From Desulfatiglandales bacterium (GTDB taxonomy: Bacteria; Desulfobacterota; DSM-4660; Desulfatiglandales; Desulfatiglandaceae): 64,000 nt of DNA. Positions 9,465-63,136 of this stretch are shown here, one piece after another. How positions within the stretch are numbered: position 1 is the stretch's first letter; each line of letters begins with the position of its first letter. The stretch spans positions 5,600,001 to 5,664,000 of the forward strand of contig OY759599.1 in NCBI GenBank assembly GCA_963662465.1, in the 5' to 3' direction. A program made the translations under genes and the position numbers. Under the pieces are notes generated by a model, which was given only the letters and a program-made list of their open reading frames with translations, was not told where the DNA came from and did no database searches.

Positions 9465-9615
9465 CTTGTCCATTTTTTGAAATCAAAAAAGTTGGCGTTT
9501 ACTTCAAAAAAAATTACAGCTTGTGACCGGATATGTCAAACACCTGTGTTATGGTTTCCCACAAGAAAGCTTGGAAGCTTTTGGAAATGGAACCATTTCT
9601 TATCGGGAGGGCAAA

Positions 9616-10859: not shown

Positions 10860-11578
10860 TCAGAAAACAGAACGCCATTACCGGGAGTGTAATCTATTCC
10901 CACTTTCGGCATCTCTGCCCCTATCACACCTGGCTCCTTTTTAATGTGGGGTTTACGGAAGTAACGCCTGCCCCTTCAGATCGGATGCTCATGGATACGG
11001 GCATTCGCCATGAAGATGAGGCCCTGAGATATTTCAAGAATCAACTGGGGGATGAGTGTGTTGAAATCCCGGCTGTTGAGGGTCAAAACACCGAGCAGGA
11101 TATGGCGCTCAGGGCCGAGAAAACCGTTGTGGCCATGCAGGAAGGGAAACAGGTTATTTACCACGGTATTCTGGCGCCCGACATGCGCCTGCTTGAAAAT
11201 GCTCTCAGCCCATTGCCTTACGACATTCCCATGCGGGGTGAAACGGATTTTCTCTTCAGGGTGGATACCGGCGAAAAGACCAAATGGGGGCCGTTTCATT
11301 ACGAAGTGGGAGATGCGAAGTTTTCACGGTCCTCAAAATTCTGCCAGCAGATGCAGGTGACGTTCTACGCCTGGCTCCTTGCGCAAATTCAAGGGACGTC
11401 TGCCCAATGCGGCAGAATTTTAACCCGGCCCCTGGGTGAGGAAGTGGTGGACGGCAGGACCGTCCTGCGGTCGGAAGGGATTACCCTCGCAAACCATTTC
11501 AAGCGGTGGTACTTTCATGCAAAGGAATCACAGACAATCGTGGAGGCCACTGAGTTCGCTGGAAAGCTTAGTGAATAA
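10856..11578 (+). pseudogene. Chimeric ORF: TM0106 nuclease N-terminus (PD-(D/E)XK) fused in frame to the last ~46 aa of the SF1 helicase
   Basis: GIRHE, VIYHGIL, GETDFL, YEVGDAKFSRSSK..QVTFYAWLL, then EEVVDGRTVLRSEGITLANHFKRWYF nearly identical to the end of ORF 1258..2730. Confidence 0.85.
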
Positions 11579-44109: not shown

Positions 44110-45423
44110 ATGAACAAAAGAAGAGGGAGAAACACCATAAGGGTTCTTGCACTGCTTTTTGCCTTTTCCTTTATGTTTTTCAGCCAGGCCGTTGCCGCTG
44201 AAAAAGCAGAGGATCTTCAGGTAAAAGGGCAGGTGAAAGCGGTTACAAACAAAGCCAAGACCGTATCTGTGAATGTCAAGGACAAAGGGGTCATGCTGTT
44301 TAAGTTTAACGACAGCACAAAGTTTATCAACTTTACCAAAACCAAGGAAATCAAATATCCCACGGCAGTGGTGGTTAAATATAAGGTTGAGGGGCCGAAC
44401 AATGTGGCCCTCTCCATCAAAAAGGCACTGATTTCTCTCCCCAATGGCGTGACGGAAATCAAGACCGACGACGTGGCCGCGCTGGTTGAAAAAGGGCCGG
44501 AAGCCGAGAACTACTTTCTGGTGGATGCCAGGCCGGCCACCGTCGCCTCCGCCGGACATATTCCCACGGCGGTTTCCATCCCCATTAATCTGCTGGAGAA
44601 AAAGGGCGCTGAGCTGCTGCCCCCGGACAAAAACAAGCTGCTCATTTTCTATTGCGGCGGCCCCACATGAGGCATGAGTCCTAAATCCGCCGGTCTGGCG
44701 AAAAAATGGGGCTACGAAAATGTCAAAGTGTATGTGCAGGGCATTCCCAACTGGAAAAAAACAGGACACCATACCGTTTCCACCGCTGACTACGTGAGAA
44801 CGGCCAACATCGTTTTAATCGACCTGAGGGCGCCCGCTGCCGTCACCGCAGGCCATATCCCCCGGGCCGTCAGCATCCCCGCCGGCAAGCTTGACGCAGC
44901 CAAAGATCAATTTCCAGAGTCCCTCACCGCACCCATTGTTTTTTATTCCGACAACATGGCGGAATCCATAAAGGCCGTGGAAACCGCTCGTGGATGGCGG
45001 TATAAGAATGTCACCCTGTTGGATTTCCCGGGCATTATTTCATGGAAAGAAAAGGGATACGATGTCAAGACGGGTCCCGCCGCCGAGGAAATCGTTTATG
45101 TGAGGAAGCTGGAACCCGGACAGATCAGCATTGCCAATTTTGAAGCGGCGTTAAAAACCCAGGCCATTACGGTCATTGATGTTCGTGGCCCCGCGGAGTA
45201 TGCCGCGGGACACTTCCCCGGCGCCATGAATATTTCCCTTGATGAACTGCCCACAAAGATAGGCGAAATCCCCCGGGATAAGTTTGTCATCGTCCATTGC
45301 AAGACCGGCGTCCGCGGGGAAATGGCCTATCTGCTCCTCAAGGAGAAGGGGTATGACGTGAAATATCTCAAGGCCGGTTGCCGGTGCAAATCGGATGGTA
45401 CCTATATGATCTGGGAAATGTAG
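44110..45423 (+). CDS. Exported multi-rhodanese selenoprotein (437 aa, Sec at codon 187)
   Basis: ORFs 44071..44670 and 44674..45423 are in one frame separated by a single TGA in IFYCGGPT*GMSPKSA; signal peptide; three rhodanese domains; SECIS hairpin follows. Confidence 0.88.
44668..44716 (+). promoter_or_regulatory. Bacterial SECIS element
   Basis: TGA..agtcc taaatc cgcc-ggtct-ggcg aaaaaatg gggct: apical stem with G-leading loop about 20 nt after UGA, plus lower stem. Confidence 0.78.
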
Positions 45424-45446
45424 CCCAACGAATCCAACCTTGATTT

Positions 45447-45480
45447 TCCCCGCCGCCTTTAAGGGACGGGGTTTTTTTTG
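45447..45480 (+). terminator. Rho-independent terminator
   Basis: ccccg..cggggttttttttg after the rhodanese gene. Confidence 0.75.
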
Positions 45481-45486
45481 AGCGGT

Positions 45487-45519
45487 TTCCGGTTCCCATG
45501 CCGGTGCGTGGGAACCGGA
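45487..45519. repeat. REP-like palindrome
   Basis: tccggttcccatgc-cggt-gcgtgggaaccgga. Confidence 0.65.
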
Positions 45520-45558
45520 CGAACGGCCCATCAGCATCACCATCTGAACTTTTTTGCC

Positions 45559-45587
45559 TTGACGGTTTAATTTGTAATAATTATAAA
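45559..45587 (+). promoter_or_regulatory. Putative sigma70 promoter of yeeE-like gene
   Basis: TTGACG-17 nt-TATAAA, then GGAGG RBS. Confidence 0.55.
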
Positions 45588-45637
45588 CCCATAGAACTCA
45601 ATCAGGACAAAGACCTTAACACTCTTGGAGGATTGCC

Positions 45638-46825
45638 ATGACTGAAGAAAAGGAAGAAAGCGTGATGGGGGGCATTCTGAAACGTTCCTACGCCATCGTA
45701 TTTTACGAAAACTGGCCCATCCGGCTGGGGGGCATCCTCATCGGCATCATGAGCGTGCTGACCTTTGCCTGGGCCAGGCCATGGGGCGTTGTGGGAGGCC
45801 TTAGAAACTGGGCGGACTGGGTTTTTCATCAAGTGGGGCTCTACGACAAGGCCCCCGTTTCTCCGCTTATTTCCACCAACTCGATCCTGACCCTGGGGCT
45901 CCTCTGGGGGGCCTTCGGTGCGGCGCTCCTGTCCAAGCAGTTCGCCATTCGCAAGGCCCCCGGTCGTGAATTGATCAAAGGGGTGGTGGGCGGCTGCTTC
46001 ATGGGCGTCGGTTCCGCCATGGCCGGCGGCTGCAACGTGGGCGGTTTCTATATCGCCAGCAGCGCCCTCTCCTTTGCGGGGCTTGCCATGCTGGTGGGCT
46101 TGATTGCCGGCGCTTACCTGGGGCTGCGATACCTTTACTGGGAAATGATGCACCTGCCCTCGTCACCGCCCAAAGGCGGCGGCGCCAAAAAAGTCAACCT
46201 CCTGTTCCTGGAACCCTATATCGGCGCCGTGGTTTTCCTGGGCGCCCTGGCAGCCACATGGTTCTATGCCCGGGAAGCCTATACACGGGTGGGAGGGCTG
46301 CTGTTGTGCGGCATCGCCTTCGGCATCATCATTCAGCGAACCCGGTTCTGTTTTGTCCGTTGCTTCCGAGATCCTTTCATGACCGGGGAAGGGGACATGG
46401 TCAAGGCCGTCGCCTTCAGCATAATCATCGGCGTCTTAGGCTTCGCGGCCCTCAAATGGACCGGCCTCAGGCCGGAAAATGCCTATGTAACCCCCACCTT
46501 CTGGTTCGGGAGTCTTGTGGGGGGCGTCATCTTCGGCTTCGGCATGCTCATCTCGGGCGGCTGTGGGTCCGGAAGCGTATGGCGAGCCGGAGAGGGACAC
46601 GTCAAACTCATGGTGGTAGTGATCTTTTTTGCAGCCACCAACTCCCTGTTCAAGACTTTGATCAATTCGTCGTCGGGTTTCAAGGCCCTCTTGGGAAAAC
46701 GGGCCTTCATGCCGGATGTCATGGGATACAAATGGGCGGTAATTGCCCTAATTGTCATTTTCCTGCTCTACGCCCTGATTGCCCAGTGGAATGAGGAAAC
46801 AGATAAATTCACCGTTGAAATGTGA
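45638..46825 (+). CDS. YeeE/YedE sulfur-compound (thiosulfate-type) transporter
   Basis: Multi-TM; AGGCNVG, QRTRFCF, GGCGSG conserved Cys motifs. Confidence 0.9.
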   Translation: MTEEKEESVMGGILKRSYAIVFYENWPIRLGGILIGIMSVLTFAWARPWGVVGGLRNWADWVFHQVGLYDKAPVSPLISTNSILTLGLLWGAFGAALLSKQFAIRKAPGRELIKGVVGGCFMGVGSAMAGGCNVGGFYIASSALSFAGLAMLVGLIAGAYLGLRYLYWEMMHLPSSPPKGGGAKKVNLLFLEPYIGAVVFLGALAATWFYAREAYTRVGGLLLCGIAFGIIIQRTRFCFVRCFRDPFMTGEGDMVKAVAFSIIIGVLGFAALKWTGLRPENAYVTPTFWFGSLVGGVIFGFGMLISGGCGSGSVWRAGEGHVKLMVVVIFFAATNSLFKTLINSSSGFKALLGKRAFMPDVMGYKWAVIALIVIFLLYALIAQWNEETDKFTVEM

Positions 46826-46898
46826 TGCTGGTTTTTCCTTTTCCTTACCCTTTTTTTTTGATATTCTTGTGAGAATAAAACTTTTTTGGAGGGTCACA

Positions 46899-47753
46899 GT
46901 GGTCAATACATGGAAATTTTGCAAAAAAGCAACCGTCTCCTTTTTAATAGCCTTTGTTTTAGCCCTCATTTCACCCATGGCAACGTTGGCCCTTGAAAAA
47001 AAACTGACCAATTCCCTGGGTATGGAATTTGTTCTGATTCCGACCGGAACATTCACCATGGGCAGCCCGCTGAATGAACCCGGACGAGATCGAGATGAAG
47101 TGATGCATACCGCCGAAATTAGCCGGCCTTTTTATTTGCAGACCACCGAAGTGACGGTCAAGCAATGGCGTGATATCATGGGAAGATCCTTTTTTGGCCG
47201 CAAAAGAGGATCTGACAATATGCCCGTGGTGAGGATTTCCTGGCAGGACTGCATTAAATTCATCAAAAAACTGAATGCCCGCAACGACGGCATCTACCGA
47301 CTTCCCACCGAGGCGGAATGGGAATACGCGTGCAGGACCGGCAATCATACGGCCTACAGCACAGGCGACAACATCAGTTGCGACCGTGCCATGTATGCCA
47401 ACAACACCCTGAAAAGTGCGGATTGCGTGAAGGTCGTGGAATCAAAAGGACTGCCGCCGGATGAGCCGGCCCCGGTAAAAAGCTATGCGCCCAACGCCCT
47501 GGGGCTCTACGACATGCACGGAAATGTCTGGGAATGGTGCGAGGACTGGTATCATCCCTACAAAACAGATGTTGCCGTAAAGCCCCAAGCCCAGGGTGAA
47601 ACCCCATCCATTGAAACTGGAACCGATAAAGTGCGAAGGGGGGGAAGCTGGTACGGAACCGATACTAGGTGCCGCTGCGCCAATCGGAATTTCAGTCATT
47701 TTGCCAACCGATATCAAACCACGGGGTTTCGGCTGGTGCGAGAAGTAAAATAA
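46899..47753 (+). CDS. Formylglycine-generating enzyme (SUMF1)-domain exported protein
   Basis: NSLGMEFVLIPTGTFTMGS, RLPTEAEWEYACR, GLYDMHGNVWEW, GFRLV; signal peptide. Confidence 0.9.
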   Translation: MVNTWKFCKKATVSFLIAFVLALISPMATLALEKKLTNSLGMEFVLIPTGTFTMGSPLNEPGRDRDEVMHTAEISRPFYLQTTEVTVKQWRDIMGRSFFGRKRGSDNMPVVRISWQDCIKFIKKLNARNDGIYRLPTEAEWEYACRTGNHTAYSTGDNISCDRAMYANNTLKSADCVKVVESKGLPPDEPAPVKSYAPNALGLYDMHGNVWEWCEDWYHPYKTDVAVKPQAQGETPSIETGTDKVRRGGSWYGTDTRCRCANRNFSHFANRYQTTGFRLVREVK

Positions 47754-47786
47754 TTCTAGAAATCTGTGAAAGGAACATGAGCTGCT

Positions 47787-48923
47787 ATGAGACTCCATGA
47801 ATATGAAGGGGCGGATATTTTTGAAAGCATGAAGATCCCGGTACCGAGACGAGATGTCGCGGAATCCGTGGAAGATGCCGTGCGAATCGCGGGAGAAATC
47901 GGATACCCGGTGATTCTCAAGGCCCAGGTGCTGGTGGGAGGCCGAGGCCTGGCCGGGGGTATCAAGACCGCCCACAATCCGGAAGAACTCGAAGATCTGG
48001 CGGGAGATCTTTTTGGAAGCCATATCAAGGGACTCAAGGTCCGTAAGATCCTGGTGAGTGAAAAGGCCGATATTGTCAAAGAATTGTATATCGGCATCAC
48101 CATTGACGGATATTCGGGAAAACCGGTGGTGGTGGCCAGCACCGAAGGCGGCGTTCACATCGAGGCGGTAGCGGAAATGTCTCCTGATAAGATTGCCTCA
48201 TTTCATGTGGACCCCGGTTTCGGATTTTATCCCTATCATGCGCGGAACCTTTTCAGAAAACTCGGACTCTCCCAGCGCACCTTGATTTCATGCGCGGATG
48301 TGACCGTACAACTGTACAAGATCTTCACCCGCCTTGAAGCCCTTCAGGTGGAAATCAACCCCCTGGCGTTGCTGTCCAACGGCGGCGTAATGGCCGTGGA
48401 TTCGGTCCTGGAAATTGATAATTCCGCCCTTTCGAGAATCAAACATCCCCTTCCCGATTACTGGCAACGGATTGAAAACTCCCTGGAACGCAGGGGCAAG
48501 GAAATTGGCGTGACTTACGTGGACCTGGACGGAGACATCGGTCTGATCAGCTCAGGCGCCGGTTTGGGCATGGCCAGCATGGACATTATCGGACAGCAAC
48601 TTAGTCCCGCCAATTTCCTGGAAACCGGCGGAGGCATTACCGCCCAACTGCTCTACAAATGCATGGATCTGGTGACCACCAAAAAACGTATCAGAGGTCT
48701 GCTGATCAATATTTACGGCGGCATCAATCCAATCCATGAGGGCGCCAAAGGCGTGGTTCAATATATTAAGGACAACCATCTGACCATCCCCATCGTGGCC
48801 AAGGCCCTGGGAAATCATCAGGAGGAAACATGGGAGATTCTTCGCTCGGGCGGGGTCCATGTGGTAACCGATGCGGCTACTGAAGTGGCTGTTGCGCGAC
48901 TGGTTGAACTGGTAGGGACATAG
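47787..48923 (+). CDS. sucC: Succinate-CoA ligase beta subunit-like
   Basis: MRLHEYEG, KAQVLVGGRG, EINPL, GAGLGMASMD, ANFLETGGG. Confidence 0.85.
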   Translation: MRLHEYEGADIFESMKIPVPRRDVAESVEDAVRIAGEIGYPVILKAQVLVGGRGLAGGIKTAHNPEELEDLAGDLFGSHIKGLKVRKILVSEKADIVKELYIGITIDGYSGKPVVVASTEGGVHIEAVAEMSPDKIASFHVDPGFGFYPYHARNLFRKLGLSQRTLISCADVTVQLYKIFTRLEALQVEINPLALLSNGGVMAVDSVLEIDNSALSRIKHPLPDYWQRIENSLERRGKEIGVTYVDLDGDIGLISSGAGLGMASMDIIGQQLSPANFLETGGGITAQLLYKCMDLVTTKKRIRGLLINIYGGINPIHEGAKGVVQYIKDNHLTIPIVAKALGNHQEETWEILRSGGVHVVTDAATEVAVARLVELVGT

Positions 48924-48997
48924 ACGATTTGCACCGGACACGAGAGATGACGGTTATCGGTTTACGGTTACACAAACGAAAATATTGAGGATTTACA

Positions 48998-49870
48998 ATG
49001 AGCATATTTATGAATGACCATACCCGGGTCATTGTTCAGGGAATCACTGGAAAGATCGGCAGCGTACAAACGCGCTGGATGTTGGAATACGGAACGGCCG
49101 TGGTGGGTGGCGTAACGCCCGGAAAAGGGGGAAAGACCGTTGAGGGATTGCCGGTTTTTGACAGTGTGGAAGAGGCCGTAAAAGAAACCGGGGCCAATGC
49201 CTCCGTTTTTTTTGTGCCGGCCGCCTTTGTGCTGGATGCCTTTTATGAAACAGTGGATGCGGGCGTCGAACTGATCGTGATCGTTCCGGAACATGTGCCT
49301 GTACACGATGTCATGAAAATGCGGGCCTATTTAGAGGGCAAAAGCGTTGTGGCCCTGGGGCCTACCACGCCGGGGATTCTGGTTCCCGGAAAAGGAAAAA
49401 TGGGCATCATGCCCGCGTCGCTCTTTGCCCCCGGTCGAGCCGGCATCATTTCCAGAAGCGGCACCCTTTCCTATGAATTCGCGGGCATCCTGTCTGAAAA
49501 AAACGTCGGACAGAGTACGGTCGTGGGCATGGGGGCCGATCCGGTTGTACTGACCAATCTGTCCGATATCCTCAGGCGTTTTGAAAAAGACGATGACACC
49601 GGAGGCGTAATTATCGTGGGAGAAGTGGGCGGAGACCAGGAAGAACAGGCGGCCGAATTTATCTCTACACGCATGAAAAAACCTGTCGCCGCCTATATTG
49701 CCGGACGTTTCTCACCTCAGGGAAAACGCATGGGACATGCGGGGGCTATCGTGCGAGGTTCAGCGGGGACGGTGGAAGGGAAATGCGAGGCGCTTCAAGC
49801 CGCCGGCGTTACGGTGCTGGAAAGCCCTGCGGCGGTCGCCGATTGGGCCATTGAAAATCACCTTCAGTAA
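48998..49870 (+). CDS. sucD: Succinate-CoA ligase alpha subunit-like
   Basis: VQGITG, GVTPGKGG, SRSGTLSYE, RMGHAGA. Confidence 0.9.
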   Translation: MSIFMNDHTRVIVQGITGKIGSVQTRWMLEYGTAVVGGVTPGKGGKTVEGLPVFDSVEEAVKETGANASVFFVPAAFVLDAFYETVDAGVELIVIVPEHVPVHDVMKMRAYLEGKSVVALGPTTPGILVPGKGKMGIMPASLFAPGRAGIISRSGTLSYEFAGILSEKNVGQSTVVGMGADPVVLTNLSDILRRFEKDDDTGGVIIVGEVGGDQEEQAAEFISTRMKKPVAAYIAGRFSPQGKRMGHAGAIVRGSAGTVEGKCEALQAAGVTVLESPAAVADWAIENHLQ

Positions 49871-53349: not shown

Positions 53350-54204
53350 CTAAGAATTCGCTGACATTCGGCCCATGAAATAGGCGGCAACCAGGGTTCC
53401 CAAAACGGTGACCAGGGAGTAGGCAAATACCGCCGCGGGCGCTACGGTTCCCGCAAAATTGGCGGATGCCGCCACCAGGGCTGCCGGAGCATTGCGCACT
53501 GTGGTATTTAAAGCCAGAGCCTTTTTTTCCCCCTTATGGGGTCCTCCCATGAACCAGCCTATGACCAGACAGGTTGTAAAAAGGACAACACTGCCAACCG
53601 CGGCCCGCCAACCGAACAGCGCAAGGGTGTGGTAATGGGTCAGTATAATCAGGGAACAAGCCCCCAGAACCAACAAATTGTTCAGAACACGAAGGGGTCC
53701 GGCGATTTTCCGGCTGACAGCGGGCTGCCAATGGTTCAGCGCCAGCCCGGCTGAAAGGGGCAGGAGTTGACCCAGGGCCACGACCTTCATGATTTTCAGA
53801 TAATTTACATTAAGGAGCTCTCCTTCCGTAAATCCTGCCATCAGTAGCTTGAGCACAGCTGGAGAAATTACGGTGGAAAGGGCGGCCAGGAGGATCATGA
53901 GGCCGATGGATAGGGGAACATCGCCCTTGGCCAGGGCCGTGAAAGGAGGCCCCATGGGGGCCCCTGAAAAAACCACTCCTATCAGGAAACCCGCAGCCAC
54001 CAAGGGATCCGGCCTGAACAGGAGAAGAAGGCCAAAGGCCGCAAATGGCGCCAGCAGGAAATTCGTGACCAACCCCTTCCAAACGATTGCCCTTTTTTTT
54101 AGGGAATCCGTCAACTGGGTCGTGGTCACGGACGAGCCCATATGAAACATGAGGCATAAAAGCCAGATAAACGTAACCGTATCGGTAACCTGGTTCAACA
54201 TCAT
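53350..54204 (-). CDS. Bile acid:sodium symporter (BASS) family transporter
   Basis: Multi-TM, MFHMG, NFLLAP, AKGDVPLS, TVRNAPAA. Confidence 0.88.
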   Translation of the reverse strand: MMLNQVTDTVTFIWLLCLMFHMGSSVTTTQLTDSLKKRAIVWKGLVTNFLLAPFAAFGLLLLFRPDPLVAAGFLIGVVFSGAPMGPPFTALAKGDVPLSIGLMILLAALSTVISPAVLKLLMAGFTEGELLNVNYLKIMKVVALGQLLPLSAGLALNHWQPAVSRKIAGPLRVLNNLLVLGACSLIILTHYHTLALFGWRAAVGSVVLFTTCLVIGWFMGGPHKGEKKALALNTTVRNAPAALVAASANFAGTVAPAAVFAYSLVTVLGTLVAAYFMGRMSANS

Positions 54205-54218
54205 TCAAGCTGCTCCGG

Positions 54219-55175
54219 TTATGCCTGTTCCAGCCTGTCCACTGCCTTCTTGATTTTCAGAACGGTCACATCCGCCAGTTTCCGGAGGCTTTCCACCTCT
54301 TCAGCGGAATAGGCGTAAAACCCCTTGCCCGTCTTCATGCCCAAGTCTCCTTTTGCCACCATGTCTTCCAGGATTTTGGGTGGTTTGAATCCGTCTTCCC
54401 CGGTTTTATCATGAACATATCTAAAAAGGTTCAAAGAGGTGTCCAAACCCGCATAATCGGCCATTCGAATGGGGCCGATGGTGCAGAGACGCAGGGCAAA
54501 GCCATTCTGAATCACGGTGTCCACATCTTCCGCCGAACAGACGCCCTTTTCCACCAGGGTCAAGGCCGCCCGGAACATGGCGGCCTGAATATAGTTGTGA
54601 ATAAAAGCGGGGTGTTCTTTTAAAACCACGGTTCGTTTCCCGATGCCATCCAAAAGACTTAATGCCAGTTCAACCGTTTTCGGGGAAGTCTTCCTGCCGG
54701 GGACCACCTCCACCACCGGCATGAGGTGAGCCGGAATAAACCAGTGGGTCACAATGGCCCTTTCAGGGTATTTCATCTCGGAAGCAATTTCGTCAATGCT
54801 CATGGAACTGGTGTTGGACGCCACGACGGTTTCTTTGCCGCAAAGCTCGCCGCACCGCTTGAACACATCCCGCTTGATATTCAGATTTTCAGGTACCGAT
54901 TCGGTCACATAATGGGCACTGCCCATGACCTCCTCCCAGTCCAGGGTGAAATGGATGCGGGATACGGCTACATCCGCTTTTCCCTGGTCCAGTACGCCCT
55001 GTTCCACCATGAGGCGGATATTGGACTCAAGCCGCTTTCGAGCATTTGCAAGGCTTGCCTGCTGCGTATCCAGCGCCTTTATCTCATACCCACTGCCCGC
55101 AAATGCCAGGGCAATATCCGGCCCCATAATACCCATACCCACCACTGCTACTCGTTTAATGTCTTCAACCTGCAT
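54219..55175 (-). CDS. 3-hydroxyacyl-CoA dehydrogenase family protein
   Basis: VGMGIMG, ESVPENLNIK, ASNTSS, THWFIP..VVEVV, GMKTGKGFY. Confidence 0.9.
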   Translation of the reverse strand: MQVEDIKRVAVVGMGIMGPDIALAFAGSGYEIKALDTQQASLANARKRLESNIRLMVEQGVLDQGKADVAVSRIHFTLDWEEVMGSAHYVTESVPENLNIKRDVFKRCGELCGKETVVASNTSSMSIDEIASEMKYPERAIVTHWFIPAHLMPVVEVVPGRKTSPKTVELALSLLDGIGKRTVVLKEHPAFIHNYIQAAMFRAALTLVEKGVCSAEDVDTVIQNGFALRLCTIGPIRMADYAGLDTSLNLFRYVHDKTGEDGFKPPKILEDMVAKGDLGMKTGKGFYAYSAEEVESLRKLADVTVLKIKKAVDRLEQA

Positions 55176-55190
55176 GGCGATTCTCCTCCT

Positions 55191-56129
55191 CTATTTTCCC
55201 TTGTCCCGCTTCTCAAAAGCACGATTCACAATTCCCTGAAGTCTTTCCATGGTTTCTTTTGTCGGCGGCTTGAAATCCCTCAACTGATAAATTCTCCCCA
55301 GAAAACCGTACTTGGTTTCCCCCAACCGGTGGTAGGGCAACAGCTCATAACTGATCACATTTTCATGGGGAAGGATAAATGCCAGCACGGCCCGCACATG
55401 ACTTTCGCTATCGTTTATGCCCGGCATAATGGGACTGCGCGCCAGGAAACGCTTATCTTTAAACGTGCTATAGGCCCTTTCCAGATTCGCGAGGATCCGA
55501 CTATTGTCCACCCCCGTCCATTTTTGGTGCCGGACGGGATCCATGAGTTTAAGGTCGTGAAAGATGGTGTCCACATGGGGCAGGACCATTTCCATGGCCT
55601 TCCAGGGCACATTGCTTGCAGTCTCAATGGCGGTACTGAGCCCCCGGACACGGGCTTCCTGAAGGAGGGCCGCCGAAAACCGGGGCTGACACAAACAATC
55701 CCCGCCGCTTAGCGATAGACCCCCGCCGCTTTCCCGGTAGAAGGCATTGTCCTGTTCCACCTCCTCCAACACCTGTTCCACCGTCATCTCTTTCCCGAAT
55801 CGATAGAGAGCCATGGAAGGGCAGACGTCCACGCAAAGACCGCAGTTGGTGCAAAGATCCCAATTGATTTTCATCCGGTCGCTGGGAGAAAGGGTAAAAA
55901 TAGCGGATTCGGGGCAGATCTCCCTGCAGGCGCCGCAGGCGTCTTCCCCGATGCATTTATGGGGGTTATAGGCCAGTTCCGATTTGGGATGGATGCTCTC
56001 GGGATTACAGCACCACTTGCAGCGAAGGGAACATCCTTTCAGAAAAACCGTGGTGCGAATACCAGGCCCATCATGAAGACTGAAATGCTGAATGTTTAAG
56101 ACCGTGCCCGTTTGCTGGTTCTTCGCCAT
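55191..56129 (-). CDS. Glycyl-radical enzyme activating enzyme with ferredoxin insert
   Basis: HDGPGIRTTVFLKGCSLRCKWCCNPES, two extra Cys clusters, ELLPYHRLG. Confidence 0.95.
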   Translation of the reverse strand: MAKNQQTGTVLNIQHFSLHDGPGIRTTVFLKGCSLRCKWCCNPESIHPKSELAYNPHKCIGEDACGACREICPESAIFTLSPSDRMKINWDLCTNCGLCVDVCPSMALYRFGKEMTVEQVLEEVEQDNAFYRESGGGLSLSGGDCLCQPRFSAALLQEARVRGLSTAIETASNVPWKAMEMVLPHVDTIFHDLKLMDPVRHQKWTGVDNSRILANLERAYSTFKDKRFLARSPIMPGINDSESHVRAVLAFILPHENVISYELLPYHRLGETKYGFLGRIYQLRDFKPPTKETMERLQGIVNRAFEKRDKGK

Positions 56130-56144
56130 GAAGCAAATCCCCCT

Positions 56145-57224
56145 TTATTGTGAATCCCCAAGGGATATGCCCAGGGCCCGTGCTACCTGAACCAATTCAC
56201 GGCCGTGGGGTTGCACAAAAATCAGGTCAGGGGGTTGAAAGGCCGTCATGACGCCGATTCGACCGTCCTTCAGGGCGCGGACAGCGGCGGCGCCGTAGCC
56301 CACACCCAGCTGACGGTCCACGGCCGTGGGGTTGCCGCCGCGAATCAGTTGACCCAAAACCAGGGGAAAGGTCTCCTGAGCCATCCGTCTCTGCAATTCA
56401 AGGGCCACGCTTTCAGCCACCAACCCTGACTGGTCCATCACATGACTGCCCTCGTTTAACAGTGGGTTTTCACCTTTTGCGGGAGAGGCCCCTTCCGCCA
56501 CGACCACCATGGCCACGGGCCATCCCCGCCGCAATTTTTCCTGGAGCCGTGTGGCCACGGACCCCAGGTGGTAAGGAATTTCCGGAATCAGGATAGCATC
56601 GGCGGGAAGCGCCATGCCCCCTTGCAGGGCCAGCCAGCCGGCGTGGGTTCCCAGCACCTCCACCACGGCGATTCGACCCAGCGTTTCCGCCGCGGTTCGA
56701 GCCCGGTCGAGGGTTTCCACCACATAGGCAAGGGCACTGTTAAACCCGAAGGACAGGGTGGTTCCCGCCACATCATTTTCCACCGCCTTAGGCACACACA
56801 CCAGGGGAAGCCCTTTCCGAGCCAGTTTCCAGACCATACCCAGTTCTTTAAGCCCCAGCACGGAAATGATGCCGTCAATGCCTGCTGCTTCTACGTTTTG
56901 AAGCAGGGTATCGCTCAGATCTTTTTCCACGATCTGGTTGTCCGGGTCCACCACCTGGACCCGAAAGGGGTCGATGGGGTGCGTTGTGCTCAGAATACCC
57001 CTCGAAAGGACGGCAGGGTTCTCAATTTTCAGGGGGGAGAGAGAAACCATGCCCCCCTCTTCATATCGGTCCGGAAAAAGCAATCCGTCAAAGCCGTCGC
57101 GGATGCCCACCACCTCCCAGCCCAGTTCAAAGGCGGCCCGAACCACGCCCGTAAATACCGCGTTCAGGCCCGGTACATACCCTTCCCCCACATTCACCGC
57201 AATCCGCTTTATTTTCGAACCCAT
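56145..57224 (-). CDS. 6-phosphofructokinase-family protein with degenerate catalytic motifs
   Basis: PGLNAV, GIRDGFDGL, VPKAVEND, VEVLGTHAGWLAL, ILIPE, VVAEGA, LGQLIRGG. Confidence 0.85.
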   Translation of the reverse strand: MGSKIKRIAVNVGEGYVPGLNAVFTGVVRAAFELGWEVVGIRDGFDGLLFPDRYEEGGMVSLSPLKIENPAVLSRGILSTTHPIDPFRVQVVDPDNQIVEKDLSDTLLQNVEAAGIDGIISVLGLKELGMVWKLARKGLPLVCVPKAVENDVAGTTLSFGFNSALAYVVETLDRARTAAETLGRIAVVEVLGTHAGWLALQGGMALPADAILIPEIPYHLGSVATRLQEKLRRGWPVAMVVVAEGASPAKGENPLLNEGSHVMDQSGLVAESVALELQRRMAQETFPLVLGQLIRGGNPTAVDRQLGVGYGAAAVRALKDGRIGVMTAFQPPDLIFVQPHGRELVQVARALGISLGDSQ

Positions 57225-57260
57225 GCCCTGTTCTCCTCCGACTTCCGACTGCTGCCCCCT

Positions 57261-59756
57261 CTACATATCATATTCAGTGCGAGCAATGATCTCATTCTGA
57301 GTGGCCGGATCCAGCTCCGAAAAAAAGGCCGAGTATCCTGCGACCCGAACGATGAGGTTTCGGTATTTTTCCGGATCTTTCTGGGCCGCCCGCATGGTCT
57401 CGGCGGAAATGCAGTTCATCTGAATATGCCAGATCTTGAGATTATACCACCCCCGGATGAGGGAAACCAGTTTTTGAGTGCCCGCATGCCCCTGCAGGGG
57501 ACCGGGAGAAAGCTTGATATTTAAGAGAGGCGAACACCAGTGTTTGGAATCGTGTGGAACAAATTTGCTCACGGAGTTAAGGAGCGCCGTAGGCCCCATG
57601 GTGTCATATCCCTGTTGAGGACCTGCCCCCTCGGACAGGGGTTCTCCGGCCCTGCGTCCGTTGGGCGTGGCGCCGGTGGCCTGCCCCAGAACAATGTGGG
57701 TGGTGACGGGAAGCACCCGGAGTTCCCAGTTGCGGCCCACCACGTTGTTGGGATTATCGAGCTTTCCGATCTCGTCCACCATGAACCGGTTGATCCGGAC
57801 CATCATGAGGTCGGCCTCAGCATCGTTGTTTCCCCATTTGGGGGCGCTGATGCAGAACTGGCGAATCTTTTCCTTTCCTTCCCAGTTTTTCTCGACAGCC
57901 TCCAGAAGTTCGGCCATGGTGAACCGTTTTTCATCAAAGACCCGTCTTTTGATGGCCACCAGGGAATCGCACAGGGTGCCCGAACCGATCATGTCGATGT
58001 TGACCAGGGACACAAGGTCTTTGTTCGTAAATCCCACGCCGCTTCGCATGGCATCCTTCATTTCCCGCATGAACGGCTCATTGACGATGCTGCTGAGAGG
58101 CGACGCGATGTAGCGGGAGCGATAGCCTTCATAAAGAATATTACGATCAAAGACCATTTTCAGATGATAGCGCATCTGCCGGGCCCAGGCCTCCCAGACC
58201 GCTTCAAAGGTTTCGAATTGTTGAGGGTCTCCCGTCCTGAGCCCAACGGTTAGGTCCCCGAGCCTTCGAATTCTACCGTCATTGAGGGCCATCTCCAGGG
58301 ATGCAACCTGGTTATTGTAAGTACTGCCACAGTTGTACACTTCACTTCGAATCTGCCGGCATTCCATACATCCGTTCACGGTCCAGTCGTTGGCCAGGTG
58401 CAGTGGAACGCCCTTGGCCAGATACATGGGTATCACCACCTCGTCGTTAAGCAGCTTGGGATAACCCTGGCCCTCTTTGATGGTTTCGGCAATATCGTAG
58501 AAAAGCCTGTCCGGAGTGTTGGAGTGGATCCTGACCGCCAGATCGGGCATGGTCAGGGCCACGCCGCTTTTGGATTTCAGAAAAAGGTAGGTCAGTTCAT
58601 TGCTGGCATCGCGACCGTCGGTTGTCTGGCCTCCGAGGGTCACACACTCAAAATGCGCGAAACCGGACGTGGACCCCGCGATATGCCCCGCCAGGGGCAT
58701 GAAGATGTATTGGTACATCTTGAGGTTGAGCATGCGGATCAGATCCAAGGCCTCCTCGTCCGTAATGCGGCCCTCCTCCCGGTCTTTTTTGTAATAGGGG
58801 TACAGGTACTGGTCCATGCGCCCGTTGCCCACATTGCCGCCGATATTGAGCTCGATCCGGGTCCAGACCTGCAACCACCACTGACATTGAAGGGCCTCTC
58901 GAAAGGTACGGGCCGGATGCTCGGGTACTTGTCGGCAGATGGCGGCGATTTCCGTCCACTTGGCGATCACTTCAGGGTTTTCGGCCTTCTGAGCCAAAGC
59001 CTCGGCCTTGTGGGCGTATCGGTTTGCCCATGTGACAACCGCCTCACAGGTGAGCAGGCCGGCCTCGATGAAATCATTTTTTTCCGAACATCGGGGGTCC
59101 GTGGGCATGAGGGACGCGCGCATTCCCTCCAGTTCCTTTCGAATGCCCGCAAAGCCTTTCTTGAGAACACGCTCGTAGTCCAGGGTCCAGTTCTGGCTGG
59201 ACCTGCCGGTGCCGGTTTCCACATAAACGCCGGTGGGCTTTCCGTCTTTTGTCCATCCAAAATCATAGGCGGCGGGGGCGTTTGCCCGCAGCAGGCTCAT
59301 GAAGTTCACATCCAGGGCATGTTCCCGCCAATAGGGGATGATGTCCGATTCCATGACCGGCCAGTCGGAAGGGTCAATAAACGGTTCGGATGGAGCGGGG
59401 TCGTCCTTGACCATTCTTTTGAGCGATGCGTATCCTCCGCCATCGCACTCGGCAAAGGGGACCACGTAGCGACCCACCCATGGGGCAGGGGAACCCACAA
59501 TCTCCTCATCGGGATCGATGAAGACGGGAATGCGCTCCGCGAAGGCTTTGAGGAATTTGGCGTGGCGCAGGTTAATGGGCTGCCCTTCCGTTTCCCGGTA
59601 CACATCGGTCAGGATTTTTGTCCGTTCCACCAGCAGACGTATGGGCAGACTTCGAATGCGCTCCAGCAGTCGATCAAATCCCGGACTGGTCCTGACCCAG
59701 GTGGATTTTCCCTGTGCAATGGCTTTTTCCTGGGCGGTGAGTTCCCCAGTATCCAT
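57261..59756 (-). CDS. Glycyl radical enzyme (eliminase-type, IslA-related)
   Basis: 831 aa; Gly loop IVRVAGYSAFF, Cys loop VNGCMECR, GRMDQYLYPYY, ATPNGR. Confidence 0.95.
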   Translation of the reverse strand: MDTGELTAQEKAIAQGKSTWVRTSPGFDRLLERIRSLPIRLLVERTKILTDVYRETEGQPINLRHAKFLKAFAERIPVFIDPDEEIVGSPAPWVGRYVVPFAECDGGGYASLKRMVKDDPAPSEPFIDPSDWPVMESDIIPYWREHALDVNFMSLLRANAPAAYDFGWTKDGKPTGVYVETGTGRSSQNWTLDYERVLKKGFAGIRKELEGMRASLMPTDPRCSEKNDFIEAGLLTCEAVVTWANRYAHKAEALAQKAENPEVIAKWTEIAAICRQVPEHPARTFREALQCQWWLQVWTRIELNIGGNVGNGRMDQYLYPYYKKDREEGRITDEEALDLIRMLNLKMYQYIFMPLAGHIAGSTSGFAHFECVTLGGQTTDGRDASNELTYLFLKSKSGVALTMPDLAVRIHSNTPDRLFYDIAETIKEGQGYPKLLNDEVVIPMYLAKGVPLHLANDWTVNGCMECRQIRSEVYNCGSTYNNQVASLEMALNDGRIRRLGDLTVGLRTGDPQQFETFEAVWEAWARQMRYHLKMVFDRNILYEGYRSRYIASPLSSIVNEPFMREMKDAMRSGVGFTNKDLVSLVNIDMIGSGTLCDSLVAIKRRVFDEKRFTMAELLEAVEKNWEGKEKIRQFCISAPKWGNNDAEADLMMVRINRFMVDEIGKLDNPNNVVGRNWELRVLPVTTHIVLGQATGATPNGRRAGEPLSEGAGPQQGYDTMGPTALLNSVSKFVPHDSKHWCSPLLNIKLSPGPLQGHAGTQKLVSLIRGWYNLKIWHIQMNCISAETMRAAQKDPEKYRNLIVRVAGYSAFFSELDPATQNEIIARTEYDM

Positions 59757-59806
59757 CTTTTTCTCCCTGTTTTTTGAGCTGTTAGCTCTTAGCTAAAAGC
59801 TGGAAA

Positions 59807-60733
59807 CTATCCCTTTAGAAAATCAGGATTCGCAAACTCCGGGTCGGGATAAGTGTAAAAGCCTTTTCCAGTCTTGACCCCCAATTCTCCCTTATCAACC
59901 ATGGCCTTGAGGGCATCGGGCGGACGATCCCTTTCCTCCCCGGATTCCAGGTAGTAGCTCATCTCCACATTGTAGGTTACATCCAGGCCGTTAATATCCA
60001 TCTGACCAAAGGGTCCGACAGGCAATCCGTAAGCCACCATCCAGGCCCGGTCGATGTCCCGGAAATCCACAAACCCGTCAGCCCACATATACAGAACCTG
60101 TCGTTTAACGGACCGCCACACACGGTTAAAGCAGAAACCGTAAATCTCCTTTCTGACCGTAAGGGGAATGCAGCCGATGGCGGAAATCCATTGCTTTCCC
60201 GCTTCCAGGGTTTCGGGGCTCGTTTGACTACCCCCCATGATGTCCACCATGTTGATGCCCGTTACCGGCGTATAGAAATGCAGATTCAGGCATTTTTCGG
60301 GTCGTTTTGTGGCATCCTCGATCCTTGAAATGGGAATGGTGGAGCTGTTGCTGGCCAGGATGGCCCTGGAAGGGGCCAGGGCATCCATCTCTTTGAATAC
60401 CTTCCGCTTGAGTTCCAGATTTTCGGGCACCGCCTCGATGACCAGATCGGCATCCTTCAGGGCATCGGCCATGACGGAGGCGGTTTGTACTTTTGAAATA
60501 GCGCCGTTCCACTGTTCAATAGGGACCACAGGCCCTTTCTTGCGGGCGGTCATGATGCCTTCAAACTGCGCGACCGAGCGCTCAAAGGCCCCTTTCGTGT
60601 TGTCATAGACCGTGGCCTTGAAGTCAAAACAGGCGGCCTGAACGGCAATCTGGGCACCCAGAATGCCTGCGCCGATGATGGTTACCTGCAAGATTTGCAT
60701 GGTTTCAGGATAATTGAAAGTTTTTTCGTTCAT
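59807..60733 (-). CDS. 3-hydroxyacyl-CoA dehydrogenase family protein
   Basis: IGAGILG, EAVPENLELK, ASNSST, LHFY, GFCFNRVW, GVKTGKGFY. Confidence 0.9.
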   Translation of the reverse strand: MNEKTFNYPETMQILQVTIIGAGILGAQIAVQAACFDFKATVYDNTKGAFERSVAQFEGIMTARKKGPVVPIEQWNGAISKVQTASVMADALKDADLVIEAVPENLELKRKVFKEMDALAPSRAILASNSSTIPISRIEDATKRPEKCLNLHFYTPVTGINMVDIMGGSQTSPETLEAGKQWISAIGCIPLTVRKEIYGFCFNRVWRSVKRQVLYMWADGFVDFRDIDRAWMVAYGLPVGPFGQMDINGLDVTYNVEMSYYLESGEERDRPPDALKAMVDKGELGVKTGKGFYTYPDPEFANPDFLKG

Positions 60734-60842
60734 TCTTTTCCCTCCTTATTTTTTGAGACCAAATCTGCGTATCACGCAAATCCTCGTTGAGCCCAATTCT
60801 TTACCATTGACCATTTATCGGGATTTTGATATTTTTTCCAGC

Positions 60843-61079
60843 ATGAAACCAATCCGATACGATTGCCATGCTAGAAAGTGGATGAAAGACCGCCATGTTC
60901 ATGATGACGAAGTCAGGGTTGCCATTGAAAACCCCGACTTCATGGAGCAAAGCGTAAAAGGACGTATCAATGCCTTCAAATTCCTTAATAAAAGATATTT
61001 GAGAGTCACTTTTAAGAAGGAATTGGACCACGTATTGGTGATCACGGTAACCATAAGGAAAAAACCTTTCAAGGAGTAA
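60843..61079 (+). CDS. DUF4258-like (RelE-fold) putative toxin
   Basis: HARKWMKDR, AIENPD, LRVTF..LVITV; paired with DUF2283. Confidence 0.75.
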   Translation: MKPIRYDCHARKWMKDRHVHDDEVRVAIENPDFMEQSVKGRINAFKFLNKRYLRVTFKKELDHVLVITVTIRKKPFKE

Positions 61080-61083
61080 CTCG

Positions 61084-61302
61084 ATGAAAATCGAATACAG
61101 CAAAGGGATTGATGCCTTATATATTCGGCTTAGAGAAGTCCGTATTTCCGACTCCATGGACATAGAAGAAGGCGTAACAGTTGACCTGGATGAAAAAGGC
61201 CATATCGTCGGCATCGAAATCCTGGACGCAAGTGAAAAAATGGCTATCTCTGATCTTTTCAACATCCATATCGAAAACTTCCCACTTGAAAAGGTAGCCT
61301 GA
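61084..61302 (+). CDS. DUF2283 putative antitoxin
   Basis: MKIEY..DALYIRL, VDLDEKGHIVGIEILDAS. Confidence 0.9.
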   Translation: MKIEYSKGIDALYIRLREVRISDSMDIEEGVTVDLDEKGHIVGIEILDASEKMAISDLFNIHIENFPLEKVA

Positions 61303-61348
61303 TCCATTTTCTTGTCCCACCCGCCTGGCATAGCCTGTCACTTCAATC

Positions 61349-63136
61349 CTAACGCCAGCGGGTACGCTCAAATTTCCCCGTTATGGCCGCATTCACCACA
61401 TCCCGGCGTGTGCCCAGCCAGTTTTTGGGGAAACCGATGCCTGACCCGAGGGTAGCCATCTTGAGGCTGTCGGTGGCATAGACCAGGGATTCAGCCACCT
61501 GGAAGTCCCGGTCGATCATACCGGGACAGCAGGAGTGAACTACCCGGGCCCCGCTTTTTTCCACGGCTTCCACCAATCCCGCCTTTTTGGCGGCGCTGTA
61601 CATGATATAGTCCGTATATAACCAGAGACGCTTTTTCACCTTCTGCCCATTCAGGAGTTTGGCCAGTTCGACGAATTCCTCAAGGGTCAAAAACGGGCAC
61701 CCCACCACCGCCACATCGATTTCACGATTCTCGGTCTGATGGATGCCGTGGAAAAGGGCGCGTAAATCCGCCTTGCCGATTTGAATGCGCTCTACATCAG
61801 CGGGAATTTCACCCCCGAAAGCATCCTCAAGGGTCTGGGCTTCGGGGGTAATGCCCACAATGTGGATCATGGGGTAGGTCAACGCCGGGGAGACGCAGGC
61901 ACAGAATGCCTTGGCCTGCTCGTTGGTCATCTCCTTGAGACCCGCCACTACCGGCACCCGGTCCACGGCCCGAAAGCCGATGGCGCCTCCCAGGGCAACA
62001 AAGTCGCCGATATCCAGCAATTCCGGAAGAACTTCGGGGGCCACCTCAAAGAGCATCTGTCCCTTCCGATTTTTCCAGAGATGCATGCCGTATTCGGGCA
62101 TGACGCCGGTAATAGCAGCATAGAGGACCATGTTGGCGGGGTCGCGATTCACCCTGGCCCCCAGCATGGTATTGGTGTAGGCCGCGTGGTTGCTTTCGCT
62201 GGTCACATGGCATTCCCCGAACCGTGCCACGCTCATGTGCATGTAAGGGATGCAGGTGGGGATCACATGAACCCCCATGGACTTCAGATTGTCATGAACC
62301 GGCTTCATGGCCTCATACACTTTTCGGGCAGGGGTCCGAACCTTGTAATGCCAGGGCATGCCAAGGTCGTCCACCAGTTCGTCCGCTATGAAGGTACTCT
62401 CCAACGTAGTGGGAACGGCCACTTTGGCGTCCAGTTTCGCAAATTCCTCATAAATGGGCCAGGCGCCGATGACCAAACCTTCAGTCTTCCAGTCGGAAAA
62501 TACATGGGCTGAACGAATTTTGGCCATTTTTGTGGAACCCATCCCCTGACCGAATTTCACCAGTCGCTCCATGGCCACCTGTTTGGCTTTGCCGCGCTTG
62601 CCCGCCAGCATCTCCTGTTCATGGGATGTCAGTTGGAGACAGTCTTTTTTCCAGCCCCTTGCCTTCTTTCTCTCCGGTGTTACCTCTTCCGCGGCCGCTT
62701 CCTTTGAACAAACCTCGACAATGGCCTCTCCGCCGGCTTCAGGCGCCGTAATCTTGACCCGGTCTCCTGTTTTTATGGTTTGGCAAGGATCCAGGTCAAA
62801 ACCGTCCACCGCCGGGATCCCAGCGTCCACGGCGCCCCCCACGCTGATGGGATGAACCGTCCGACAGATCAGGGCCTTGGGACCTTTGCCGGTGATCTTG
62901 CATTTGAAATACAGCCCCCAGGCGCCTCCCGTGGAAAAAATATCGGTATCATAAACAATGATCTTCCCAGCATAGCTCTGACCCATCAGAGGGTGGCCGT
63001 TCATACGGATCACGCCGTCGGATCCGATGGCATTAAAAAGATGACTCAATTTTTCGGTGGTGACCAGGGCCTCCCCTTCGACCTCGCCTTCAACGCGCGT
63101 GATACCATGAAGAACTTTGCTTGGTTTTTGTTCCAT
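61349..63136 (-). CDS. Aconitase X, fused swivel plus catalytic domains
   Basis: GEVEGEALVT, HPLMGQS.AGKI, LTSHEQEMLAGKRG, CIPY, ESNHAAYTNTMLGARVNR, HIVGITPEA, VGCP. Confidence 0.88.
   Translation of the reverse strand: MEQKPSKVLHGITRVEGEVEGEALVTTEKLSHLFNAIGSDGVIRMNGHPLMGQSYAGKIIVYDTDIFSTGGAWGLYFKCKITGKGPKALICRTVHPISVGGAVDAGIPAVDGFDLDPCQTIKTGDRVKITAPEAGGEAIVEVCSKEAAAEEVTPERKKARGWKKDCLQLTSHEQEMLAGKRGKAKQVAMERLVKFGQGMGSTKMAKIRSAHVFSDWKTEGLVIGAWPIYEEFAKLDAKVAVPTTLESTFIADELVDDLGMPWHYKVRTPARKVYEAMKPVHDNLKSMGVHVIPTCIPYMHMSVARFGECHVTSESNHAAYTNTMLGARVNRDPANMVLYAAITGVMPEYGMHLWKNRKGQMLFEVAPEVLPELLDIGDFVALGGAIGFRAVDRVPVVAGLKEMTNEQAKAFCACVSPALTYPMIHIVGITPEAQTLEDAFGGEIPADVERIQIGKADLRALFHGIHQTENREIDVAVVGCPFLTLEEFVELAKLLNGQKVKKRLWLYTDYIMYSAAKKAGLVEAVEKSGARVVHSCCPGMIDRDFQVAESLVYATDSLKMATLGSGIGFPKNWLGTRRDVVNAAITGKFERTRWR

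Follow-up and report, generated by a model that had tools for sequence, protein, structure and literature searches.

A predicted glycyl radical enzyme operon of a Desulfatiglandales bacterium: a putative new clade and accessory gene set among glycyl radical eliminase systems

Introduction

Strict anaerobes convert abundant organosulfonates to sulfite, and this to sulfide, with glycyl radical enzymes (GREs) that cleave C-S bonds. Here we describe a cluster of seven genes that includes a GRE and its activase in a Desulfatiglandales bacterium (assembly GCA_963662465.1, contig OY759599.1). The DNA analyzed, called the window below, is the 64,000-nucleotide stretch from base 5,600,001 to base 5,664,000 of the 8.16-Mb, one-contig genome, and the cluster occupies positions 53350-63136 of it.

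The accessible part of a 2026 review names only IslA/IseG and HpsG as GRE C-S lyases, acting on isethionate and 2,3-dihydroxypropane-1-sulfonate (DHPS) (PMC13450708). The present cluster resembled the isethionate system (IslA/IseG with IslB; structures 7KQ3 and 5YMR) in the GRE fold, the radical glycine, the Cys-x-Glu motif, both sulfonate arginines, an activase with auxiliary clusters and a host that carries dsrA. It differed in six pocket positions, in its neighbors (AcnX, two HADH-family dehydrogenases, a pseudo-phosphofructokinase and a BASS transporter) and in having no microcompartment gene in the cluster scans. HpsG and HpsH (6LON; NF048011 and NF048010) were the top curated models for the GRE and the activase, and the arginine pair was the same; however, both scores were under the cut-off, and HpsG Gln187 and Trp were replaced by Asn and Phe. 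The hpsGHKLM locus of Bilophila wadsworthia, in the portion of the report available, has a transporter of the tripartite ATP-independent periplasmic (TRAP) type and no phosphofructokinase (PFK)-like, AcnX or HADH gene (PMC13335735). The PFK-like protein shared with PfkA (1PFK, 4PFK) a full-length fold. A further likeness was to the carnitine/beta-keto-acid route (an HADH-family dehydrogenase with a beta-keto-acid cleavage enzyme, BKACE), as the HADH relatives use substrates that are not CoA esters and a BKACE gene is present at one related locus (L009). However, carnitine dehydrogenase models scored far below their cut-offs.

On these comparisons the operon is predicted to be a new clade with its own accessory set within the known GRE eliminase systems. 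In titles and abstracts, with most subscription journals outside the search, no publication was found on a GRE with a PFK-like partner or on an AcnX-GRE cluster, nor, within the same limits, on a GRE acting on sulfobutanoate or sulfogluconate. The remodeled pocket and accessory enzymes of this deep branch likely widen the list of sulfonates or related anions degradable by radical chemistry. The tight pairing of a kinase-dead PFK paralogue and a single activase lineage, seen with GREs that are unrelated and in several phyla, suggests an undescribed accessory factor that takes part in activating or controlling GREs.

Results

Organization of the cluster

Genes were called from a listing of open reading frames (ORFs) and from Pfam and NCBIfam profile scans. 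The seven genes were all on the minus strand, and the gaps between them, from the acnX side to the BASS side, were 615 bp (acnX/HADH1) and then 50, 36, 15, 15 and 14 bp. The cluster, with the gene pair inserted in it, was as follows.

61349-63136, minus strand: fused AcnX (aconitase-X family Fe-S (de)hydratase), 595 aa; PF01989 (N-terminal swivel domain) 74.3 bits and PF04412 (catalytic domain) 368.1 bits
60714-61302, plus strand: DUF4258/DUF2283 toxin-antitoxin-like pair, inserted and outside the pathway
59807-60733, minus strand: HADH1, 308 aa; PF02737 and PF00725; NAD-dependent 3-hydroxyacyl-CoA dehydrogenase (HADH) family
57261-59756, minus strand: GRE, 831 aa; PF02901 480.2 bits and PF01228 91 bits; 1,2-eliminase type
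56145-57224, minus strand: PFK-fold protein (pseudo-PfkA), 359 aa; PF00365 203.8 bits over the full length
55191-56129, minus strand: GRE activase (radical SAM), 312 aa; TIGR02494 330.5 bits against a cut-off of 174.35
54219-55175, minus strand: HADH2, 318 aa; PF02737 and PF00725; NAD-dependent HADH family
53350-54204, minus strand: BASS/SBF secondary transporter, 284 aa; PF01758 76.2 bits

The initial annotation had read the region as seven co-directional genes with short gaps and a toxin-antitoxin insert before acnX, and had remarked on the lack of microcompartment, aldehyde dehydrogenase and pyrroline-5-carboxylate reductase genes. The ORF listing and family scans confirmed that layout, and none of the three kinds of gene turned up when the cluster was scanned with Pfam and NCBIfam models. 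Chance does not account for the arrangement, since GRE orthologues of other organisms are surrounded by the same genes.

The glycyl radical enzyme

The protein had both parts that define the superfamily, a pyruvate formate-lyase-like barrel and a glycine-radical domain, the latter with the motif RVAGYS, in which Gly807 was invariant. Its best curated model was the NCBIfam equivalog NF048011 (HpsG of Desulfovibrio type), with 818.7 bits against a cut-off of 1000, and the nearest solved structures by phmmer were IseG (5YMR, 651 bits), HpsG (6LON, 647 bits) and IslA (7KQ3, 624 bits). When 5.8 billion proteins were searched, only 15 close clusters were found at 66-90% identity, all of them from metagenomes or metagenome-assembled genomes (MAGs), which marks the clade as rare; the next best matches were at 45% or less.

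The GRE was aligned to IslA, with pocket residues as they are named in the available parts of PMC8473560 and of the review PMC13450708, and conservation was judged on 11 aligned clade members. Arg185, Asn189, Cys463, Glu465, Arg680 and Gly807 were invariant in all 11. Cys463-Met-Glu465 aligned to Cys468/Glu470 of IslA, which places the GRE with the 1,2-eliminases, and IslA Arg189, Arg678 and Gly805 were likewise kept, as Arg185, Arg680 and Gly807. Six other pocket positions of IslA were changed: Gln193 to Asn189, Ile192 to Gln188, Thr312 to Gly307, Trp374 to Phe369, Val680 to Leu682 and Phe682 to Val684. The segment after Cys-x-Glu, MPN in IslA, was Gln468-Ile469-Arg470. Most of the changed positions were invariant in the 11 members, and Arg470 was conserved in at least 90%.

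In C-S cleaving GREs the sulfonate is anchored by two arginines and one glutamine (R189, Q193 and R678 in IslA), according to the portion of the review available (PMC13450708). Of this anchor the GRE had Arg185 and Arg680, with Asn189 in the place of the glutamine and Gln188 one residue before it. Trp374 is conserved within IslA, where Val680 and Phe682 contribute packing (PMC8473560, available part); with Phe369, Leu682 and Val684 at these positions, the GRE was not of IslA type. The same part of that paper gives the residue at the beta-1 site as Gln193 in IslA, Asp216 in CutC and His160 in HypD. The GRE had Asn189 there, which is neither the His of the dehydratase HypD nor the Asp of the amine-lyase CutC, and fits none of the characterized GRE classes. 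From the residues kept and changed in the IslA alignment, we consider the anion anchor to be partly retained and the pocket to be remodeled, wider and more polar than that of IslA.

Pocket signatures were scored on 131 GREs. The IslA-like type (I-Q...W) accounted for 45 rows, the HpsG-like type (L-Q...W) for 23 and a 'QN' type (Q-N...F), to which the query clade belongs, for 40; the rest fell into several minor types. For a FastTree tree the 131 rows were thinned to 81, with one in four of the IslA-like and of the HpsG-like rows and all of the rest; the root was placed on L053, whose branch is very long. With 19 rows and support 99, the query clade was sister to all other rows, two more QN clades split off next, and the IslA and HpsG types were nested within QN, a rooting made weak by the long-branch outgroup. 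Because of this weak rooting we claim only that the query clade is, by its predicted position, deep and distinct within the IslA/HpsG clan. No other GRE of this clan was found in the window's genome at E<=1e-20.

The activase and the PFK-like protein

The activase scored well above the cut-off of the GRE-activating-enzyme model TIGR02494, and it had the CX3CX2C motif and two auxiliary ferredoxin-like (4Fe-4S) motifs. In an alignment of 50 sequences, C33, C37 and C40 were invariant in all; of the auxiliary cysteines, C59, C65, C68, C96 and C103 were invariant and C72, C93 and C99 were conserved in at least 90%. The best curated model was the equivalog NF048010 (HpsH), with 389.2 bits against a cut-off of 430.

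Kinase motifs were lost throughout the PFK-like protein: GGD was EGY, GGDGS was LGLKE, TIDND was AVEND, MGR was LGT and LGH was LGQ. In E. coli numbering, AVEND replaces the catalytic Asp127 by Glu, and LGT removes Arg171. We take the roles of these residues (GGD and GGDGS as nucleotide and Mg motifs, Asp127, Arg171) from the E. coli enzyme. All NCBIfam PFK models were under their cut-offs (TIGR02483 255 against 430.55 bits; NF002872 211.9 against 253 bits). In the 120 homologues nearest to it, the eight most frequent variants per motif showed the same kinase-motif losses and covered 91 (GGD), 87 (TIDND) and 106 (MGR) sequences, and the sugar-side positions E149-N150-D151 and E244, with others, remained conserved. 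The protein is thus predicted to be unable to act as an ATP-dependent kinase, and the label pseudo-PfkA that it had been given was apt. A look-up in the ESM Atlas with this protein returned ordinary PFK clusters only.

The company that the gene keeps was surveyed in 401 genomes of the window's phylum, of which 35 matched the PFK-like protein at E<=1e-60. We examined 29 loci and the window's own; the six other matches had no locus. In the window and in the five loci with a 53-62% identical match (48-58% by tblastn), the activase gene adjoined the PFK-like gene in every case, and longer stretches of the five loci showed a GRE within about 5 kb in each. In the 24 loci with other PFK-family genes (36-44% identity by tblastn), no activase or GRE was found within 1.5 kb, and one of these genes (L049) retained every kinase motif. 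Over all sources, the PFK-like gene was directly beside the activase gene in 15 of the 15 loci where both were visible. The partner GREs were 40-42% identical to the query in four loci (L006, L050, L051, L052), where they were of QN type and scored 954-1014 bits with the HpsG model, around its cut-off, and only 28-29% in two (L053, L054); the GRE of L053 was without the eliminase Glu and Arg185. Over this range the activase stayed 53-65% identical. As adjacency was complete and activase identity held while GRE identity dropped, the activase and the PFK-like protein are predicted to form a conserved module that serves different GREs, in which the latter would accompany this activase lineage as a partner that binds a ligand or has an accessory function. 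A predicted complex of the two proteins (50-row alignment each) scored 0.00 in two runs without controls and was uninformative either way. Selenocysteine was considered for the PFK-like family, since three genome matches were flagged '1 TGA', and was rejected, as the translated aligned regions showed no internal stop.

Conservation and mobility of the neighborhood

The query clade was represented by 12 loci from two scans of the collection (L001-L004 from one, L009-L016 from the other), which were searched by tblastn with the window's proteins and by Pfam scans. The PFK-like gene was found in eight of them (L001, L002, L003, L004, L010, L011, L014, L015) and the activase gene in the same eight. 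HADH2 was present in seven (L001, L002, L003, L004 as fragments, L011, L012, L013), BASS in five (L001, L003, L004, L011, L014) and AcnX, beside the GRE at 71-85% identity, in five (L009, L010, L011, L014, L016). HADH1 was found in two, L009 (84%) and L010 (69%); in four (L003, L012, L013, L014) a short-chain dehydrogenase/reductase gene stood in its stead directly after the GRE. BASS homologues were also found in the sister-clade loci L006, L051, L052 and L053. Most missing neighbors were explained by contig ends, and in L012 no PFK-like or activase gene was found in the visible 10 kb upstream of the GRE. In L009 a BKACE gene (1836-2726) lay among TRAP transporter genes directly upstream of acnX-HADH1-GRE, and L003 had an acetoacetate-decarboxylase-like fragment; no orthologous BKACE was found near the cluster in the window's genome. 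A search of solved structures with the TRAP binding protein of L009 returned generically named DctP proteins only.

The initial annotation had proposed an undescribed pathway for an imported anionic hydroxy compound, either an organosulfonate or a hydroxy acid, and had named as evidence against it either neighbors that are not conserved or a GRE that clusters tightly with a characterized enzyme of identical active site. Neither was seen: neighbors were conserved across the 12 related loci, and the GRE, at no more than 45% identity to anything outside its clade, missed the HpsG cut-off and differed from IslA at six pocket positions.

The hosts of the query clade were Desulfobacteraceae, Desulfatiglandales and one Alphaproteobacteria MAG. 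Transposases flanked or interrupted the cassette in three loci (IS4 in L001, ISL3 in L003, IS66 cutting the GRE in L004). We regard the cassette as conserved and horizontally mobile, and the operon in the present genome as intact. In L004, a Desulfatiglandales MAG, the region 9114-11446 had the IS66-family transposase abutting a GRE that began only at residue ~350, and the PFK-like and HADH2 genes downstream were fragmented; this is a decaying copy of the cassette, long-read errors being possible.

AcnX, dehydrogenases and transporter

AcnX had the catalytic and swivel domains of its family and scored about equally with two solved relatives (126.7 and 125.4 bits); the NCBIfam equivalog gave 222.8 bits against a cut-off of 700. 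The protein was aligned to 7D2R and 7CNR, with the ligands interpreted through PMC8184944. Cysteines were kept at the positions of C273 and C508 of AtAcnX, a Cys stood at the S449 position and a Gly at the C510 position, and Cys71 of the Ser70-Cys71-Thr72 stretch in the swivel domain was replaced by Thr. The fusion was thus like bacterial type I, yet the pattern of cysteine ligands was that of archaeal type II (phosphomevalonate dehydratase), and the protein appears to be a third, undescribed AcnX subtype. AcnX-family matches were found in 36 of the 401 genomes of the phylum sample. None exceeded 39% identity over most of its length, one short fragment reached 59%, and one match only (G392) adjoined a GRE. 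Since the matches in the phylum were distant and only G392 lay beside a GRE, the AcnX orthologue is specific to this GRE clade.

HADH1 and HADH2 each had both Pfam domains, NAD-binding and C-terminal, and every NCBIfam equivalog was under its cut-off. Their nearest structures were the diketoreductase 4DYD for HADH1 and the FHMPC dehydrogenase 4OM8 for HADH2, neither of which uses a CoA ester. HADH2 had the expected Ser, His and Glu at the positions that we take to be the catalytic motif, and HADH1 had Asp in the Glu position. The BASS protein scored 72.7 bits with TIGR00841, whose cut-off is 326.3. The HADH enzymes and AcnX, together with the BKACE and acetoacetate-decarboxylase-like genes at related loci, point to beta-hydroxy or beta-keto carboxylate chemistry as a probable theme of the cluster.

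Sister-clade loci and host genome

L051 and L053, two sister loci in which the PFK-like/activase pair is present too, contained SulP genes and rhodanese domains. GH63-like, glucose-dehydrogenase-like and MIP genes, 64-90% identical to one another, were common to L012 of the query clade and to the sister-clade loci L050, which retains mere remnants of the GH63-like gene, and L052; L012 has a lactonase as well. None of this sugar gene set (GH63-like, glucose-dehydrogenase-like, MIP, lactonase) was found in the window's genome. The window's genome carried dsrA, a gene for dissimilatory sulfite reductase (573.9 bits against a cut-off of 392.85).

The set was best seen in L052 (2046-16600, minus strand) and L012 (3698-13960), with a GH63/MGH1-like protein of 913-915 aa, a zinc alcohol dehydrogenase of glucose-dehydrogenase-like type and MIP at 64-74% identity between the two loci, and it accompanied QN-type GREs of two different clades. 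In L051 (3453-12000) the GRE was preceded by a split AcnX and separated from the PFK-like gene by a rhodanese-like and a Phenol_MetA_deg porin-like protein; after the activase came transporters of the SulP, AAE and BASS families. Next to its GRE, L053 (5894-12002) encoded a protein of 430 aa that had two 4Fe-4S motifs as well as a TrmB-like region, and in L054 (9934-15647) PFK-like genes flanked the activase on both sides.

Proposed pathway and alternatives

We infer as follows which class of substrate is used, in what order the steps run, which way the transporter works and what becomes of the sulfite. The cluster would encode a radical C-S lyase pathway for an imported hydroxy-sulfonate, likely also carboxylated, from which sulfite is released. 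We give this reading about an even chance of being right; it is supported by the GRE motifs, the two arginines, the Fe-S motifs of the activase, the conserved gene set and dsrA. The BASS carrier would import the anion. AcnX, as an Fe-S (de)hydratase, would share with both HADH-family dehydrogenases the conversion of a beta-hydroxy or beta-keto acid skeleton in free form; the nearest solved relatives of the dehydrogenases use substrates that are not CoA esters. These three enzymes would either precede the GRE and make a 2-hydroxyalkyl-sulfonate, or follow it and convert the carbonyl product. Once the activase had installed the glycyl radical, a thiyl radical on Cys463 would remove the hydrogen of the carbinol, and the hydroxyl would lose its proton to Glu465. 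Arg185, Asn189 and Arg680 would hold the sulfite, which would then depart, leaving a carbonyl compound, and be respired via Dsr. As to the substrate itself, 3-hydroxy-4-sulfobutanoate, sulfolactate and sulfo-sugar acids are our guesses.

Several observations weigh against a C-S lyase. The Gln of all three characterized C-S lyases is Asn here, and Trp374, Thr312, Phe682 and Val680 are also changed; because the sulfonate-binding Gln and the pocket residues differ, the anion or the chemistry could differ too. HpfG, in the available part of the review, is a sulfonate-binding GRE that acts as a dehydratase (PMC13450708). Carboxylates and bile acids, not sulfonates, are the known substrates of BASS carriers (NCBIfam PanS match). 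The cluster contains no sulfite exporter or Dsr gene, and L003 and L012 have no AcnX in the 10 kb that can be seen upstream of the GRE in each. An Alphaproteobacteria genome carries the clade as well, and a Planctomycetaceae genome a sister clade. Finally, the IslA and HpsG types nest inside QN types in the tree, a result dependent on the long-branch outgroup.

The GRE could instead be an eliminase or dehydratase that acts on a sulfur-free anion, such as a dihydroxy-carboxylate, sugar acid, phosphonate or phosphate ester, with the arginines holding a carboxylate or phosphoryl group. The exchange of Gln for Asn, the wider and more polar pocket (T312 to G, F682 to V and W374 to F, with Q468 and R470), a transporter family known for hydroxy and keto carboxylates, and AcnX and HADH as carboxylate-directed families all speak for it, as do the GH63-like, glucose-dehydrogenase-like, lactonase and MIP genes beside L012 (query clade) and L050/L052 (sister clade) and the occurrence of the clade outside the window's phylum (Alphaproteobacteria; Planctomycetaceae for the sister clade). 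We nevertheless consider it unlikely. The beta-1 site is without the His or Asp used by HypD and CutC, the nearest characterized enzymes are all C-S lyases, and SulP and rhodanese genes recur in sister loci; to our knowledge, carboxylate is not a feasible leaving group in GRE radical chemistry and would not be one here. At the opposite end, the GRE could be a divergent but isofunctional sulfite-lyase for isethionate or DHPS (IslA or HpsG) with incidental neighbors. This agrees with HpsG and HpsH as the best NCBIfam models and with the retention of both Arg, Cys, Glu and Gly. However, neither score reaches its equivalog cut-off (818.7 of 1000 bits for the GRE, 389.2 of 430 for the activase), identity to that group is 45% or less, and Gln193, Trp374 and Phe682, conserved or functionally important in IslA, are replaced. 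The neighbors are conserved, not incidental, and those of hpsGHKLM in B. wadsworthia differ from them in the part of the report cited above (PMC13335735). We therefore regard a plain IslA or HpsG as distinctly improbable.

The role of the PFK-like protein is a separate matter. Instead of a partner of the activase, it could be an enzyme of the pathway or a protein that binds its substrate, with a ligand resembling a sulfo- or phospho-sugar. On the fructose-6-phosphate side, residues have been retained or have undergone conservative change and do not vary within the family (E149, N150, D151, E244 and R184/R295-type positions). The ATP side is destroyed, and two of the four cationic positions that we take to bind phosphate would be neutralized, suiting a monoanion. 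Yet the 48-62% identity and the adjacency to the activase hold even beside GREs of 28-29% identity (L053, L054). As the pairing persists beside such distant GREs, an activase-tied role fits better than one tied to a single substrate, and the substrate-binder role, at clearly less than an even chance, is a tentative option only.

A bolder extension of the C-S lyase reading seems to us improbable. QN-type GREs with a dead PFK and an activase would form an unrecognized family that removes sulfite from sulfo-sugar acids derived from sulfoquinovose (SQ), or from the beta-hydroxy-acid products of their breakdown, and the present operon would be an acid-importing version. In the dead kinase, what was once a fructose-6-phosphate site would now serve as sensor or chaperone for a sulfo-sugar and gate the activase. 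Indirect pointers to it are the sugar gene set at L012 and L050/L052, and SulP and rhodanese genes in L051 and L053. According to the available part of a 2026 review (PMC13436972), oxygen-dependent routes are the only ones known by which a single organism catabolizes SQ completely; if the extension were true, the operon would give a one-organism anaerobic route from sulfosugar to sulfide.

Inserted pair and flanking genes

The 615-bp gap between acnX and HADH1 held two plus-strand ORFs, 60714-61079 (DUF4258) and 61084-61302 (DUF2283). The DUF4258 match, at 23.2 bits, was slightly below its cut-off of 25, and the DUF2283 match scored 63.4 bits. In the closest relative, L009, the acnX-HADH1 spacing was about 100 bp and the pair was absent from the junction, indicating that the pair is an insertion. 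Lying on the opposite strand, it may split transcription of the operon. A 176-aa minus-strand ORF in the same gap had no family match and overlapped the pair, and was treated as spurious. A scan for sigma-70 promoters and terminators gave the same counts as in shuffled sequence.

Directly upstream of acnX, on the same strand, lay a gene for an MscS-like mechanosensitive channel (793 aa), running from 63251 to the end of the window at 64000 and on to genome position 5665632. It was rejected as a member of the system, as it had no counterpart in related loci. The TRAP transporter farther upstream (window-equivalent positions 67508-70400) was rejected as well, its binding protein being just 27% identical to that of L009. 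On the plus strand at 44674-49870, about 3.5-8.7 kb from the cluster, genes for a rhodanese, a YeeE/YedE-type sulfur-transport protein and an FGE-sulfatase-domain protein were followed by those for two succinyl-CoA ligase subunits.

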